Position numbers and translations under genes: made by a program. Positions 22,674 to 28,140 of a stretch of 64,000 nt of DNA are shown here, in pieces. The stretch spans positions 61,092-125,091 of the forward strand of contig JANPLN010000015.1 of the NCBI GenBank assembly GCA_031426555.1, in the 5' to 3' direction. This DNA comes from Bdellovibrionales bacterium (lineage in GTDB: Bacteria > Bdellovibrionota > Bdellovibrionia > Bdellovibrionales > JAGQZY01). Each line of letters begins with the position of its first letter. The first letter of the stretch is position 1. Below the pieces are notes generated by a model. It searched no databases and had not been told where the DNA came from. It was given only the letters and a program-made list of their open reading frames with translations.

Positions 22674-22776
22674 AAGTCTGGGTTCTAGACCTTCTGTGCA
22701 GAACTTGTTTTCTTTTTCAGCAATAGTATTAATATAAGAAATGTCAGGAAGACGTATAACACCAGAGGACGGCACT

Positions 22777-24099
22777 ATGTTCAAAAATTTTCTTCTGATT
22801 TTAATTACAACGATCGCACTCGCATCCGTAACAGGATGTAGCTTATTCAGTTCAGACTCTGAAGAGCAAGACACCGCAGTGGCGGAAGAGGAAGTCGGCG
22901 AAGACGTCGGTGAAGATATCGGCGAGGATGTCGAGGGTACGACGGAGGAAACCGCTTCGACCGATGAAGAGGCTACGACAGAAACCGCTTCGACAGACGA
23001 AGAAGATGAAGAAGAAGTTGTCGACGAATATCCAGATGACGACTACGGCGACGAGGAAGAAACCGCAGTTGCGAAGGACGATGAATTCGAAAAGCCACAA
23101 AAAGAGGAAGAAACTCTTTACGTAGATCGTTCTGAAGAAACTCCAGCTGAAGAACCATCAACATACAGTGAATCCACAGAACCAATTCAAGATAGTTACG
23201 ATGGTGGTGGAAGCACGAGCGGAATGGTTTCCGTTAAGAAAATGAAGAAAACGCCCTATATGTCGAATGGTGTTCTTATCAATCGCCTTTACATTGCCCG
23301 TGACGGAGAGAGTCTTCGCACTGTAGCCGAAAAAGTTTACGGCGACGGATCACGCTCGAAAGATCTCGTCAGTTGGAATTCAAACTTCCGTGGAAAAGAT
23401 CTTAAGGTCGGCGACAAAGTTTATTATAGCTCTGCCCGCAATCCACAAGACAACTCAGCGATTCTTCTTTACTACGAAGAGGCGGGAGTTCAACCGTCGT
23501 ATCACACAGCAAAAAGCGGCGAGAGCATTCGCCGAGTGTCGCAAAAACTTTTAGGTCACGAAAGCAGCTGGAAAGAAGTGTGGGCCACAAACGATGTGGA
23601 ATCCAAATGGGAAATGCCTGAAGGAACACAATTAAGATACTGGCCAGCGGGATCCGTGGGCGCCCCTGTGCAAGCACAGGCGTCGGCAAAAGATTCGGCT
23701 CCAGAGCCAACACAACCCGAAGAAGAAGCAATGCCGGTGGAAGAAGCCACAACAACAGAGGTTGCTGCTAACGACGCTCCTCCAGTGGACGAATCACAGC
23801 CCATGGAAGAGCCGCCGCCAATGGATGACGGCGCCGCAGCTGGAATGGCGCAAAACGAAAACGCACCTCCGCCGCCACCGAGCGAAGCCACGCCTCCACC
23901 TCCGCCTCCACCAGAAGCTATTCCTACTCCCGAGGCCAACAACATGGCGCAAGAGGGAACAGAGGGTGGTGGATTATCCGATATGATGGGCGGCGAGAAC
24001 GACTCGATGATGATGGCCATCCTCGGAGGACTTCTCCTGTTGGCCGCAATGATACTCGTTGTGTTTATTCGCCGCGGTCGCAAAAAAGCCTACGGCTAA
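22777..24099 (+). CDS. Lipoprotein with acidic repeats, two LysM domains, a Pro-rich region and a C-terminal TM/basic tail
   Basis: Start trimmed to MFKNFLLILITTIALASVTGCS (lipobox). Two LysM-like segments are present (YIARDGESLRTVAEKVYG..., YHTAKSGESIRRVSQKLLG...). It contains PPPPPSEATPPPPPPP and ends ILGGLLLLAAMILVVFIRRGRKKAYG. Confidence 0.7.
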   Translation: MFKNFLLILITTIALASVTGCSLFSSDSEEQDTAVAEEEVGEDVGEDIGEDVEGTTEETASTDEEATTETASTDEEDEEEVVDEYPDDDYGDEEETAVAKDDEFEKPQKEEETLYVDRSEETPAEEPSTYSESTEPIQDSYDGGGSTSGMVSVKKMKKTPYMSNGVLINRLYIARDGESLRTVAEKVYGDGSRSKDLVSWNSNFRGKDLKVGDKVYYSSARNPQDNSAILLYYEEAGVQPSYHTAKSGESIRRVSQKLLGHESSWKEVWATNDVESKWEMPEGTQLRYWPAGSVGAPVQAQASAKDSAPEPTQPEEEAMPVEEATTTEVAANDAPPVDESQPMEEPPPMDDGAAAGMAQNENAPPPPPSEATPPPPPPPEAIPTPEANNMAQEGTEGGGLSDMMGGENDSMMMAILGGLLLLAAMILVVFIRRGRKKAYG

Positions 24100-24122
24100 T
24101 TAAGCCGCGCTTACTAATTGAA

Positions 24123-24141
24123 CTCGCAGTTAGGCTGCGAG
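24123..24141 (+). terminator. Hairpin after the LysM gene
   Basis: ctcgcag-ttagg-ctgcgag. A second hairpin with the same ttagg loop lies at 24154..24176 and overlaps the end of the convergent PilZ gene. Confidence 0.4.
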
Positions 24142-24162
24142 ATCTTTGATTGAAATTGGCGG

Positions 24163-24534
24163 TTAGGCCGCCAATTTTCCAAAAATGGAATTTAAAACTT
24201 CGCGTCGGGATTCACGGCGCGTTCTTACAAAGTAAATCAAATCGTCAATAATCTGCACGTCTTGATTGTTTTCAGGATTAAATTGGATTCCTGCACCTTT
24301 GGTATTTTTCCAAACGATGGCTGCTTGAAGCACGCGCTCCCGGCCGCTGACTTTAAAATGCAAATGAATTTGGTCGTTAATATCAAGGCCTTCGGGAATG
24401 TGCTCCAAAAAAGCTCCCGTTAAACTGATATTAAGTAGGCCGCCCTTACTGGATGATCTGGAATATGTTTTGCGAAATTCTATAGGTAATACAAGTGGAA
24501 CGCGTGGTGCCGGAGCGGTAACAACTTCAGACAT
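24163..24534 (-). CDS. PilZ domain protein
   Basis: 123 aa. It has an N-terminal R-rich segment followed by LLNISLTGAFLE, which fits the PilZ pattern (D/N)xSxxG. Confidence 0.65.
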   Translation of the reverse strand: MSEVVTAPAPRVPLVLPIEFRKTYSRSSSKGGLLNISLTGAFLEHIPEGLDINDQIHLHFKVSGRERVLQAAIVWKNTKGAGIQFNPENNQDVQIIDDLIYFVRTRRESRREVLNSIFGKLAA

Positions 24535-24809
24535 GTAATGACCTCCTGGTATATTCTCTCATCGGGATAAGGTTAGTAAAAAATTAAACAATCTGAGTCA
24601 CATTCAGGGTTTCTGGACGTAAAAGAGACAATAAGCGTATCAATTCGAGAAGTTAAGAGCAGCCGACTAAGAGTTTGACAATAAACCGTGGTTTAAGTTA
24701 CAAAAAAGAACAACCGATAGGCACGGGTCAAAAAAAGACAGAGCCCAGCAAAAAATAACTGCCCCCCAAAATCCATTAAATCAAAAGTAAAAATTCCGGA
24801 GAATAAAAT

Positions 24810-26564
24810 ATGTCAGATGAAAAGCCCCAGAACCCATCCGAGGCCCCAACAAAAGAACCTGTTAAAGCAAAAAAAGCGCCTGTGAATGAGATGGAGGACG
24901 TCGACTCCTTAGGTGACCTCGAAGATCATTCAATGACTGAGGAGCAAGAGAAAGCCGCCGGAAGCTCTGGAGGCGGCGCGGGAGCCGCGGGCGGTCAGCA
25001 CCGACGACGAGAAAATAGTGGCAGAGAACCAATGAACCGCGAACCGAGCAATCGCGACAATAAAAGCTTCAGCAATAATAATCGCAACAACAACAATAAT
25101 AACAACAACCGAAATCGCTTCAAAGACCGCAATAACAACAACAACAATAATAAAAACTGGAAACACAAAGATCGCGGCCCGGGCGGCGGACCAGGATTTC
25201 AAAAACCCTACGACGACGACGACTTTGGCCCAGCAGCCACAAGCCCCTCAACAGCCATCTCCGACGAAAAAGTGGATCTCTCAGATATCAATCTGACGGA
25301 GGATGAAAAAGCGGCGTTGAGCTCAAAAGGCCTAAAAACAAAACACATCGAAGAGATTCTAAAATTTGCCGCCAAGCTGAAGCTGGAAAATGCTGCAGGG
25401 ATGCGACGTCAAGATCTAGTCTTTGAAATTCTTAAGCGTGCCGCGCAGTTAGTGGATGTTTATGGAGACGGAGTTTTAGAAATCCTGCCTGATGGGTACG
25501 GCTTTTTACGCTCGCCCGATTATAATTATCTCCCAGGCCCAGATGATATTTATGTGAGTCCTTCGCAAATCCGTCGCTTTGGTTTGCGCACAGGGGACAC
25601 TGTCAGTGGAACCGTTCGCCCGCCTAAAGACGGGGAAAAATACTTTGCCCTACTCAAGGTCGAAGAGCTCAATCACGAACCGCCAGAGCGCTCTAAAGAC
25701 AAAATTCTCTTTGATAACCTCACCCCTCTTTACCCCGACAAACGCCTCAAGCTCGAGCACGACCCCGCCGACTTCACAACGCGGATCGTGGATTTGATGG
25801 CGCCATTAGGGATGGGTCAACGAGCCCTGATCGTGGCACCCCCACGAACTGGAAAAACAGTTCTTTTGCAAAACATTGCCAATGCAATTTCTAAAAATAA
25901 TCCCAATTGTAAACTTATCGTTCTGTTGATCGATGAACGTCCCGAAGAAGTGACGGACATGTCGAGAAACGTGCGCGGCGAAGTTGTGAGCTCGACGTTT
26001 GACGAACCACCAACTCGTCACGTGCAGGTTGCCGAAATGGTTTTAGAAAAAGCAAAACGACTGGTGGAGCACAAACACGATGTGGTCATTCTTTTAGATT
26101 CCATTACGCGTCTCGCACGGGCTTACAATACGGTGGTCCCGCCGTCTGGAAAGATTCTTTCCGGTGGTGTGGATTCCAACGCTCTCCATAAACCGAAGCG
26201 CTTTTTTGGAGCCGCTCGAAATATCGAAGAGGGTGGAAGCTTAACCATCATTGCCACAGCCCTGATCGATACGGGTTCGCGCATGGACGAAGTTATTTTC
26301 GAAGAATTTAAAGGAACAGGAAACTCCGAAATCCATCTGGATCGTAAGCTCATGGAAAAACGCATTTTCCCGTGTATGGACATCAATAAATCGGGCACTC
26401 GAAAAGAAGATCTTTTGATCGAAAAGGCCGACTTAAATCGCCTATGGATTTTGCGCAAGGTTTTAGCACCGATGAACGTTGTGGATAGCATGGAGTTTTT
26501 GACCGATAAAATGAAGGATTCCAAGACCAATTCCCAATTCTTATCCGGAATGGGCGGGGGATAG
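24810..26564 (+). CDS. rho: Transcription termination factor Rho with an approximately 174-aa low-complexity N-terminal extension
   Basis: The canonical Rho sequence starts near aa 175 ([31 protein letters not shown]). It has GYGFLR, the Walker A APPRTGKT and [10 protein letters not shown]. The extension contains 22 Asn in 36 residues. Confidence 0.95.
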
Positions 26565-26587
26565 CTAAACCCGTTAAAAAAGCTGCT

Positions 26588-26631
26588 TAGTGTTTGCGCA
26601 CCACTTATGGCTTAAAATTGCGCAAACACTA
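26588..26631 (+). terminator. 13-bp perfect inverted repeat downstream of rho
   Basis: tagtgtttgcgca ... tgcgcaaacacta with an 18-nt loop, 24 nt after the rho stop. The T-run after it is weak, so it could be an operator rather than a terminator. Confidence 0.4.
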
Positions 26632-26678
26632 CCCATAGTGTTTTAAAACCCGATAAAGGTCCAGATTTAGAGAATTGA

Positions 26679-26699
26679 TGTGGATAACTTTGTGGAATA
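26679..26699 (-). promoter_or_regulatory. Two adjacent DnaA-box-like 9-mers
   Basis: tgtggataa is the reverse complement of TTATCCACA and matches perfectly. tgtggaata follows 3 nt later and has 2 mismatches. Confidence 0.3.
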
Positions 26700-26823
26700 G
26701 TTTGATTTCTGTGCATATCCCCAGAAATTCCAAGAAATGCCAAAAAATGGCAGAAAAATAGGCTCGACCTTGATAAATACATGTGTTAATTAGCTAAGTT
26801 CTCGAGAAATGGAGTATTGCGTT

Positions 26824-27042
26824 ATGAAAGCAGAAATTCACCCAACTTATTATACTGAAGCAAAAGTCAGCTGTGTTTGTGGCAACACGTTCCTAACCGG
26901 TTCGGTTATGAAAGAGATCAACGTTGATATTTGCAGTGCATGTCACCCGTACTTTTCGGGCAAGCAAAAACTTGTTGATACAGAAGGCCGCGTAGAAAAA
27001 TTTAAAAAGAAATACGCAAGCTTCTACGACAAAAAGAAATAA
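26824..27042 (+). CDS. rpmE: 50S ribosomal protein L31 (Zn-binding type)
   Basis: Begins [10 protein letters not shown]. It has the Cys pairs CVCGN and [10 protein letters not shown]. Confidence 0.9.
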
Positions 27043-27057
27043 CTTTAGTTTCTTTGC

Positions 27058-28140
27058 ATGCTTTTTAACAAACTCGACGAGTTGGTGCAAAAGCACGAGT
27101 CGATAAACCACCAACTTCAGAATCCCAGCATAGCAGCTCAGCAAGATAAATTTCGTCAGTTGATGAAAGAGCACGCTGAGCTCGATAAGATCGTTAAGGT
27201 TTATCAAGAGTATAAAACTCTCACACGAAATCTTGAAGAAAACAAAATCCTGCTCACGACGGAGTCCGATGAGGATCTTCGCCAAATGGCCAAAGAAGAC
27301 ATCTCTGCCATCGAGCCGCGCATTGAGCCCCTTGCAGAGCAGCTAAAACTTCTTCTGTTACCTAAAGATCCCAACGACGATAAAAATATTCTTCTCGAAA
27401 TCCGCGCCGGAGCGGGGGGAGATGAGGCCAGTCTTTTTGCCGAAGAACTCTTTCGCTCCTACGGCTACTTTGCGCAACAGCACGGGTGGTCTGTCGAAGT
27501 TCTTTCCATTTCGCAAGGAAACGTGGGTGGCTACAAAGAAGTGATTGCCATGATCACCGGTGAAAAAGTTTATTCCACGATGAAATACGAAAGCGGCGTG
27601 CACCGCGTGCAGCGGGTGCCTAAAACCGAGTCCCAGGGCCGCGTTCACACGTCTACCATTACTGTGGCAGTGATTCCCGAAGCGGAAGATGTGGAAGTGA
27701 AAGTGAATCCAAACGACGTTCGCATCGAAACCATGCGCGCCAGTGGCGCGGGCGGACAGCACGTTAACAAAACCGACTCCGCCGTTCGCCTCACACATAT
27801 TCCGTCGGGCATTGTGGTATACTGTCAGGAAGGCCGCTCTCAGCACGCCAACCGCGACACCGCTTTTAAGATTCTTTACTCGCGTTTAAAAGCCCAAGAG
27901 GACGAGCGCGTGATCAAAGAGGCTTCGGATGCGAGGCTTGCGCAGATCGGAACGGGTGATCGCTCCGAGCGCATTCGCACGTATAATTTTCCCCAATCTC
28001 GCGTTACCGATCATCGTATCGGTTTAACAACTCACAACATCAACGGCATCATGAATGGCGAGTTAAATCCCATCATTCAGCCGCTGATGACCCACTACCA
28101 AACGGAAGCTCTCAAGGCGCAAGAAAATGCGTCTCGCTGA
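27058..28140 (+). CDS. prfA: Peptide chain release factor 1
   Basis: It has the GGQ motif (SGAGGQHVNKTDSAV) and an RF1-type PxT tripeptide (PKT). Confidence 0.97.
   Translation: MLFNKLDELVQKHESINHQLQNPSIAAQQDKFRQLMKEHAELDKIVKVYQEYKTLTRNLEENKILLTTESDEDLRQMAKEDISAIEPRIEPLAEQLKLLLLPKDPNDDKNILLEIRAGAGGDEASLFAEELFRSYGYFAQQHGWSVEVLSISQGNVGGYKEVIAMITGEKVYSTMKYESGVHRVQRVPKTESQGRVHTSTITVAVIPEAEDVEVKVNPNDVRIETMRASGAGGQHVNKTDSAVRLTHIPSGIVVYCQEGRSQHANRDTAFKILYSRLKAQEDERVIKEASDARLAQIGTGDRSERIRTYNFPQSRVTDHRIGLTTHNINGIMNGELNPIIQPLMTHYQTEALKAQENASR

Follow-up and report, generated by a model that had tools for sequence, protein, structure and literature searches.

The rho gene on the forward strand of the 64-kb stretch of contig JANPLN010000015.1 analysed here (the window) encodes a bona fide termination factor Rho of 584 amino acids, in which a long extra region stands in front of the canonical protein as a true N-terminal extension, and not as an insertion in the N-terminal domain. 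With a little better than even confidence, the first ~150-170 residues can be described as the translated, disordered initial region of a Bdellovibrio/Pseudobdellovibrio-type clade, which would act as a charged RNA-binding or condensate-tuning region. One tract of the extension is extremely rich in Asn, and an earlier description made from the letters of the DNA (the sequence-only reading) had pointed to a prion-like composition of this tract. Nevertheless, the extension resembles a prion domain less than it does a charged region for RNA binding or the tuning of condensates.

The three canonical Rho domains are found in the expected order: Rho_N (PF07498, residues 175-213), the OB-fold domain Rho_RNA_bind (PF07497, residues 220-293) and the RecA-type ATPase (PF00006, residues 325-528). 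The matches to the NCBIfam equivalogs for rho span residues 172/173-581, with 700.3 bits for TIGR00767 (residues 173-581, cut-off 509.45) and 699.3 bits for NF006886 (cut-off 315). The best match in the PDB is the Rho chain 8q3p (query residues 175-580, E = 3.5e-185), and E. coli Rho (1pv4, chain residues 6-414) aligns with residues 175-579 (E = 2e-184), its residue 6 lying opposite residue 175 of the query. Approximately 170 residues precede the canonical Rho N-terminus, and 174 precede the Rho_N match. As Rho_N ends at residue 213 and Rho_RNA_bind starts at residue 220, only six residues lie between them, which leaves no room for an internal insertion. A C-terminal extension of more than 25 residues is also absent, the TIGR model ending at residue 581 of 584. 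The Pfam, TIGR00767 and E. coli Rho alignments thus agree with the sequence-only reading, both in placing the start of the canonical part near residue 175 and in describing the extra region as an extension rather than an insertion.

The extension is a blocky polyampholyte. As a whole it is nearly neutral with 31% charged residues, and its successive blocks have net charges of -8, 0, +2, +8 and -7, the first of these being the acidic head (residues 1-48). The sequence-only reading had divided the extension into an acidic head, a Gly/Ala segment, an Arg/Glu segment and an Asn tract. Every one of these segments is present, and the window of 36 residues with 22 Asn that it had placed at nucleotides 25050-25157 is exact, corresponding to residues 81-116. 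Two elements can be added to this layout: a second acidic patch, PYDDDDF (residues 133-139), and a strongly conserved segment adjoining the first Rho domain (the pre-domain segment, residues 152-174). The bias towards Asn in residues 89-116 has a probability of 2.5e-21 (binomial, fLPS-like, with a background of 4.5% Asn), and the Asn content of the Rho core is 4.4%. Among the open reading frame stretches of at least 150 amino acids in the 64-kb window, runs of four or more Asn are found in rho alone; the tract thus does not reflect a habit of the genome as a whole. The Asn codons of the extension are mixed (14 AAT and 13 AAC) and do not form a pure microsatellite.

The extension is predicted to be disordered. 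Its FoldIndex is -0.32 over residues 1-151, compared to +0.14 for the core, and hydrophobic residues account for 11% of the extension versus 34% of the core. In the AlphaFold2 (AF2) model, calculated with an alignment of 51 sequences, residues 1-157 are coil with a predicted local distance difference test score (pLDDT) below 50. This low-confidence model has helices from residue 164 onward, including short ones at 164-169 and 172-175.

Translation, conservation and turnover of the extension

The homologues used for comparison are the best 120 (core identity at least 85%, lengths 502-659 residues). The 23 closest were aligned, 115 are alignable at the pre-domain segment and 114 are scorable for composition. 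In 119 of the 120, an extension of 91-250 residues ahead of the core is annotated. The 120th (P0085, 413 residues) is a start miscall: its locus (L084; GCA_019750295.1, JAIEOS010000007.1, 2075..3742) holds an open reading frame of 555 amino acids with an in-frame extension of 142 residues, including the motif HFKDR, and the annotated start is an internal CTG. Annotation pipelines thus occasionally clip a low-complexity extension of this kind.

The ribosome-binding site and the ATG of the long form are shared at the DNA level with a related locus, L081 (86% protein identity), in the string AAATTCCGGAG.AT.AAAATATGTCAGATGAAAAGCCCCAGAAC, and the similarity includes the first ~15 codons. The N-terminal peptide MS[DE]E is kept in all 23 of the closest homologues. 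When the window is compared with L081 by the Nei-Gojobori method, dN/dS amounts to 0.13 over residues 1-151, as against 0.014 in the core. This pattern of substitution indicates that the extension is translated and under purifying selection, about 10 times more relaxed than that on the core.

It is hardly credible that the extension is an annotation artefact, in which case the true start would lie near residue 170 (TTG at 25317 behind GGAGGA) and the upstream frame would be an untranslated leader. The P0085 protein is annotated as beginning exactly there, and the GGAGGA sits 13-14 nucleotides upstream of the TTG; however, the P0085 locus has CTG at that codon and a frame open for 142 residues upstream, and the spacing between GGAGGA and TTG exceeds the functional range of a Shine-Dalgarno sequence. 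Neither element is conserved (L081 has ctgaagatg...TTG, and L082 and L084 have CTT and CTG). The 91-250 open codons are kept in all homologues, and the dN/dS value, the Shine-Dalgarno sequence, the ATG and the N-terminal peptide all speak for the long form. The two doubts that the sequence-only reading had left, that the start codon might lie downstream and that the extension might not be conserved in related Rho proteins, are thus removed: the long start is sound, and all 120 homologues carry the extension in frame with conserved motifs. An internal start at TTG170, with the GGAGGA giving rise to a second isoform, was considered and rejected, as neither element is conserved.

Across all 115 alignable homologues, the columns of the pre-domain pattern VDLxDIxLTxEEKxxLSSKxLKxK are conserved at 0.9-1.0. 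Among the other Rho loci compared, MNLxELK is a frequent beginning of canonical Rho. We infer that INLTE...LK at residues 160-176 is the old N-terminus, split by an insert of 10 residues, and that the part upstream of it was added later. Further upstream, the closest homologues retain WK[HP][KR] with DR after it, and a basic-aromatic-basic motif, [RK]x0-2[FYW]x0-2[RK], occurs in 107 of the 120 extensions. In 109 of 114 homologues, the 40 consecutive residues richest in Asn and Gln carry a net positive charge; the median counts among them are 9 Lys/Arg, 3 Asp/Glu and 2 aromatic residues. The acidic motif DSLxDLEDHSxxEExE hardly varies among the 23 closest homologues and is present in 24 of the 120, which form one sub-clade; another sub-clade (21 of the 120) has a basic KKRGRTK head. 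In seven homologues (P0027, P0043, P0044, P0049, P0056, P0089 and P0101) the acidic head is replaced by a conserved basic ...VEVVKKRGRTK... or KKRTRK. The corresponding basic and aromatic elements in the N/Q tract of the basic-head sub-clade are RRDFRN or YFDKRNN, and both head types retain the pre-domain VDLxDINLTxEEK.

The lengths of the Asn runs vary even between proteins whose cores are 98.8-99.5% identical, being 8, 7 or 6 in one run and 7, 6 or 9 in the other. In the homologues P0012-P0023, Gly or Gly/Gln runs stand at the positions of the Asn runs, and the motifs combining Phe or Trp with Lys or Arg are retained. Across the 120 homologues, the composition of the extension swings between Asn, Gln, Gly, Ser and Ala. 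The insertion of the ENSGR type at 25008-25022 (residues ~67-71), which resembles a local duplication of an R-E-x-x-x-R-E-P repeat, is private to the present allele. It is absent from relatives that are 97-98% identical overall (98.8-99.5% in the core) and illustrates the continuing turnover by in-frame insertions and deletions.

The few homologues that carry names are Bdellovibrionaceae, Pseudobdellovibrionaceae and metagenome-assembled genomes of Bdellovibrionales, and the taxonomy given here rests on these names. The extension is not universal in genomes labelled as Bdellovibrionaceae, because the Rho of one of them ("Bdellovibrionaceae bacterium HK-STAS-BDEL_A-1", JACKAF010000001.1, locus L001, 3001-4224) is canonical and short (MTEVSNMRLQELKQK..., 76% core identity). 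At that locus no more than 11 codons are open upstream of the domain before an in-frame stop is reached. The outgroup loci come from a whole-protein scan of a genome collection, the matches listed being mostly from other phyla and including none of the closest relatives. Of the Rho loci of other phyla compared among the matches listed, most leave ~5-30 open upstream codons, and 5 of 23 leave 50-121. The extension marks one clade, which is narrower than everything named Bdellovibrionaceae. A phmmer search with residues 1-174 against 1.84 billion representatives, in which the 50%-identity clusters of Rho are represented by other sequences, returned one fragment of 87 amino acids and no donor family. 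By this search, the extension does not seem to have been borrowed from another family.

The Asn tract and prion-forming domains

The propensity of the tract to form a prion was evaluated with re-implementations of PAPA and PLAAC, the parameters of which came from the literature (the propensity table of PAPA from Toombs et al.); the PLAAC-like part is approximate and its values are indicative. Sup35 (residues 1-123) and Ure2 (residues 1-89) served as controls and gave the expected positive scores. The core peptide of C. botulinum Rho is too short for windowed algorithms and received a composition score only. PAPA gives at best -0.20 within the extension and -0.16 when the whole protein is scored, compared to a threshold of 0.05 and to 0.10 for both Sup35 and Ure2. 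The PLAAC-like log-likelihood ratio (LLR60), calculated with approximate parameters, is 13.1, versus 61 for Sup35, 22 for Ure2 and the cut-off of 20 used in PMC6400439. PLAAC-type scoring, which the sequence-only reading had proposed as a check, therefore gives a sub-threshold value in this re-implementation. The best window of 80 residues contains 26 Gln/Asn, which is below the 30 of Michelitsch and Weissman.

The tract is also strongly charged (28% of its residues) and has a net charge per residue (NCPR) of +0.17. The longest run free of Asp, Glu, Lys, Arg and Pro is 8 residues in the Asn tract and 16 in the whole extension, the latter in the Gly/Ala spacer. A charge-poor stretch of ~21 residues that might form an amyloid core is absent from the tract. 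The amyloid core of C. botulinum Rho, NNNNSNFNNNSNNNSSFNNSN, is an uncharged peptide of 21 residues that consists of 90% Asn plus Ser and passes both PAPA and pWALTZ (Pallares 2016, PMC4703818).

Among the 114 scorable homologues, none passes the PAPA re-implementation, the PLAAC-like score reaches 20 or more in 36, and 27 have at least 30 Gln/Asn per 80 residues. The stronger N/Q character is sporadic in the clade, as has been described for Rho generally (PMC6400439). In the extension studied here, 34 of 190 windows of 25 residues are PLAAC-like positive, which corresponds to the loose criterion of PMC11347177. By loose criteria (Asn-rich and disordered, or a positive PLAAC-like window of 25 residues) the tract thus counts as prion-like in composition, whereas it fails the criteria by which genuine prion domains are told apart. 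Accordingly, what stands of the prion-like composition claimed in the sequence-only reading is the extreme Asn bias in a region predicted to be disordered; the PAPA score, the Gln/Asn count and the PLAAC-like ratio go against it.

It is improbable that the Asn tract is a prion-forming domain, which would nucleate a heritable amyloid, sequester Rho and cause genome-wide read-through of terminators as in C. botulinum Rho. In favor of such a domain, the Asn bias would agree with the criterion of an Asn-rich and disordered ("NQID"-type) region in PMC6400439, where the prion-like domains of Rho are found sporadically across phyla, and the loosely positive windows and the stronger N/Q tracts of several relatives point in the same direction. 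However, the failure of PAPA extends to all scorable homologues, the tract is 28% charged and net basic, with no more than 8 residues in a row free of charges and Pro (compared to 21 in the C. botulinum core), and Gly runs replace the Asn runs in relatives. Moreover, Rho of Bacteroides fragilis, which contains a QN motif, did not aggregate, according to PMC11347177. For the same reasons, namely the charges, the short runs, the PAPA score and the exchange of Asn for Gly, the hint of a C. botulinum-type prion domain in the sequence-only reading is not sustained. "Asn-rich" by itself does not mean "prion-like", and in this case neither the charge content nor the conservation pattern favors a prion.

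Relation to other Rho proteins and possible function

Disordered additions to Rho are emerging as global regulators of termination, by phase separation in Bacteroides and mycobacteria, by selection of Rho utilization (rut) sites in M. tuberculosis and by a prion switch in C. botulinum. A classification of these additions is given by Moreira et al. (2024, Nucleic Acids Research; PMC11347177), in which an initial region of more than 25 amino acids before Rho_N defines Rho Type 2a. According to that paper, initial regions are present in 18.7% of Rho sequences and reach 352 amino acids; they are compositionally biased (with APA, QN and RxR motifs), predicted to be disordered and droplet-promoting, and 16.7% of their windows are PLAAC-positive. 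The initial region of X. oryzae Rho contains a QN-rich stretch predicted to be prion-like, and Moreira et al. conclude that the additional regions of Rho arose separately (PMC11347177). The present Rho has 174 residues before Rho_N and neither an inter-domain insertion nor a C-terminal extension of more than 25 amino acids, as is characteristic of Type 2a. The extension is the "initial region" of that type, and its distinction from an insertion has already been published in PMC11347177. Bdellovibrio and Bdellovibrionota are not mentioned in the main text of that paper. The extension resembles other Type 2a proteins (X. oryzae and X. campestris Rho) in being a biased region, predicted to be disordered, ahead of Rho_N and in carrying QN- and RxR-type elements. 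It differs from them in that phmmer with residues 1-174 detected no homology to the initial regions of other lineages, and in that the Bdellovibrio-type region has conserved motifs of its own together with the conserved pre-domain segment.

As to mechanism, the nearest precedent is the intrinsically disordered region (IDR) of B. thetaiotaomicron Rho (BtRho). In that IDR the composition is conserved and the length is not, and there are five short, charge-dense conserved motifs and an acidic conserved block (PMC13269538). A conserved positive motif in the N/Q-rich prion-like domain (PLD) of BtRho tunes RNA-driven condensation (PMC13269538). Binding of ppGpp by the IDR, condensation and its dependence on RNA have all been demonstrated (Krypotou et al. 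2023 Science; EMBO J 2026, PMC13269538). By this published description, the extension shares with the BtRho IDR a conserved composition, a variable length, short charge-dense motifs of both signs and an acidic block, as well as an N/Q-rich sub-region with a conserved positive motif, located in a region predicted to be disordered beside the primary RNA-binding site. The BtRho IDR, in contrast, is a Type 2b insertion of ~270 residues that separates the helix bundle from the OB fold, while the present region is N-terminal and comprises ~150 residues; furthermore, BtRho has a K/E-rich driver subdomain, of which there is none here. The different position and composition argue for an origin independent of the BtRho IDR.

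With C. botulinum Rho (Yuan and Hochschild 2017, as cited in PMC11347177), the extension has in common that a stretch with a very high Asn content lies within a disordered region, on the N-terminal side of the RNA-binding domain. The C. botulinum region is an insertion with an uncharged core, whereas the tract described here lies in an N-terminal extension, is 28% charged and fails the PAPA re-implementation. In the actinobacteria M. luteus and M. tuberculosis, Rho's disordered N-terminal insertion domain (NID) raises the affinity for RNA and determines the choice of rut sites (PMC13650167); in M. tuberculosis it governs rut selection and RNA binding (PMC13650167), and the additional regions of mycobacterial Rho drive liquid-liquid phase separation (bioRxiv 10.1101/2025.08.28.672908). 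The NID of M. luteus and M. tuberculosis (PMC13650167) is similar to the extension in that it is hydrophilic, disordered and rich in Arg, Asn, Asp and Gly, and an initial region is likewise present in mycobacterial Rho (Type 2c). The NID is, however, mainly an insertion, is longer and is encoded in a GC-rich genome, and its EDDV motif is absent here.

By analogy with Rho of B. thetaiotaomicron, M. tuberculosis and M. smegmatis, it is possible to describe how the extension might work through RNA binding, condensation and auto-inhibition. The net-basic Asn-rich tract, with its Arg/Lys and aromatic "stickers", would contact RNA and would be prone to self-association. The contacts with RNA might raise the RNA affinity and broaden the choice of rut sites, and multivalent, RNA-dependent self-association might lead to the formation of condensates. 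The acidic motifs would possibly fold back on the basic tract to tune or auto-inhibit RNA binding or condensation. The Asn runs (Gly/Gln runs in relatives) would mainly be polar flexible spacers, the length of which drifts by in-frame slippage, and the conserved pre-domain segment would prolong the N-terminal helix bundle.

Several points weigh against this description. The drivers of BtRho condensation are K/E-rich motifs, which have no obvious homologue in the extension. The overall quality of the AF2 model is low (a mean pLDDT of 52.9, and 50-85 even in the core), so that it supports disorder only weakly. Since only one sub-clade has the acidic head motif, and another carries the basic KKRGRTK head in its place, an acidic head cannot be a general means of auto-inhibition. 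It may also be that the Asn tract serves a purpose to which statistics of composition are blind. A literature search on Rho of Bdellovibrionota and on prion-like proteins of Bdellovibrio found no paper.

A charged region that acts on RNA and condensation could go further and make Rho switchable: the basic Asn tract would drive condensation or an altered choice of rut sites, the acidic motif would gate it in response to a cue, and termination would be re-programmed between the stages of a predator life cycle, the predator context being taken from the names of the relatives. As a cue one might think of the transition between attack and growth phases, or of an alarmone. This extended proposal is rather unlikely, and its strict form, in which the switch is a prion, is very improbable. 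A docking platform is unlikely, though somewhat less so than a prion. In that case the acidic motif, DDDDF and the pre-domain segment would bind a lineage-specific partner or ligand, for which a regulator of Rho, RNA polymerase or NusG, or a nucleotide alarmone are candidates, and the low-complexity parts would be linkers. Docking would account for the motif-like conservation inside a fast-evolving region, and, as a circumstantial point, a gene for a PilZ-domain protein is consistently found in divergent orientation next to rho, both in the window and in the loci of three relatives. On the other side, the head motif is acidic in one sub-clade and basic in another, and the feature found across the clade is a basic and aromatic N/Q/G tract that resembles a nucleic-acid binder. 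Docking is, in any case, compatible with RNA binding and does not exclude it.

Slightly less likely still is a tolerated and largely functionless expansion, in which replication slippage at AAY codons would have inflated a harmless tail that is merely kept in frame. Such a tail would agree with the different run lengths at 98.8-99.5% core identity, the private insertion of 5 residues, the range of lengths (91-250 amino acids), the swings in composition and an evolution ~10 times faster than that of the core. However, none of the 120 homologues has lost the extension, the dN/dS of 0.13 is that of purifying selection, the charged and aromatic motifs are conserved together with the net-basic character (109 of 114), and the mixture of AAT and AAC is not that of a pure microsatellite. 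Rho is, in addition, an abundant and essential hexamer, for which six copies of a neutral tail of 170 residues would be costly. A charged RNA-binding or condensate-tuning region thus remains the preferred description. The locus adds a well-delimited and clade-conserved example of such regions from a phylum without an earlier studied case, and its compact architecture of ~150 residues, with a putative acidic gate, basic and aromatic stickers and Asn/Gly spacers, is well suited to dissection by deletions.

Feature coordinates, neighbouring genes and the rho leader

Table 1. Features of the rho locus, in positions of the window.
Feature	Position	Strand	Basis or remark
Tentative promoter-like element TTGACA, 17 nt, TTACAA, in the 275-nt leader of rho	24675..24703	+	Read from the sequence
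Shine-Dalgarno GGAG, 8-nt spacer and ATG of the long Rho	24796..24812	+	Sequence; conserved in L081
rho, Rho Type 2a (initial region and three canonical domains)	24810..26564	+	Pfam, equivalogs, PDB alignment
Residues 1-26, variable K/E/P/A-rich head	24810..24887	+	MS[DE]E and a few K/E positions kept; length varies among relatives
Residues 27-48, conserved acidic short motif, NCPR ~-0.5	24888..24953	+	Homologue alignment, charge profile
Residues 49-63, Gly/Ala/Ser spacer	24954..24998	+	Length variable, often deleted in relatives
Residues 64-83, Arg/Glu/Asn segment; five of its residues (ENSGR or equivalent) are an insertion private to the allele	24999..25058	+	Homologue alignment
Residues 81-116, net-basic Asn tract (22 N in 36)	25050..25157	+	Composition scan
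Residues 102-107, conserved motif NRFKDR, breaks the Asn tract	25113..25130	+	Homologue alignment
Residues 115-122, conserved basic/aromatic motif KNWKHKDR	25152..25175	+	Homologue alignment
Residues 123-139, Gly/Pro linker and acidic patch PYDDDDF	25176..25226	+	Alignment, charge profile
Residues 152-174, conserved pre-domain segment adjoining Rho_N	25263..25331	+	Homologue alignment
Residues 175-584, canonical Rho (N-terminal helix bundle, OB-fold RNA-binding domain, RecA-type ATPase), and stop codon	25332..26564	+	Domain matches

The order of the genes around rho is conserved: gatB, a DUF192 gene, a gene for a low-complexity protein, the PilZ gene on the opposite strand, rho, rpmE, prfA, prmC and aroA. 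The PilZ-domain protein (123 amino acids, 24163-24534, reverse strand) is encoded divergently from rho, and this pairing is kept in the three relatives' loci examined (L081, L082 and L084), with a shared intergenic region of 275-320 nucleotides. A link between cyclic di-GMP and the expression of rho through the PilZ neighbour would be pure speculation. The gene at 22741-24099 (forward strand) encodes a protein of 452 amino acids that has no Pfam match and begins with an N-terminal lipoprotein-like signal (...ALASVTGC). It contains very acidic, E/D/T-rich and Pro-rich regions of low complexity as well as a PPPPPSEATPPPPPPPE stretch, and at the C-terminus a hydrophobic helix precedes RRGRKKAYG. 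At the same position, the relatives have a protein of 435-587 amino acids, also without a Pfam match.

In the leader of rho, the window and L081 have the promoter-like block AGTTTGACAATAAAC..GGTTTAAGTTA in common; a simple promoter scan did not report the TTGACA/TTACAA element. A scan of 24100-27100 against Rfam gave nothing of note (CrcZ with 13.9 bits, E = 0.86). The part of the mRNA that encodes the Asn tract (25029-25145) is rich in A and contains more C than G, with 21 C versus 6 G in 25068-25145 and 21 versus 10 in 25029-25106. This rut-like stretch could double as an intragenic loading site for Rho in autoregulation. The excess of C over G is probably a by-product of the AAC/AAT codons, and it would then vanish in the relatives with Gly runs. 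In the 3' part of the 5' leader (24717-24833), the ratio of C to G is 1.6-1.8.

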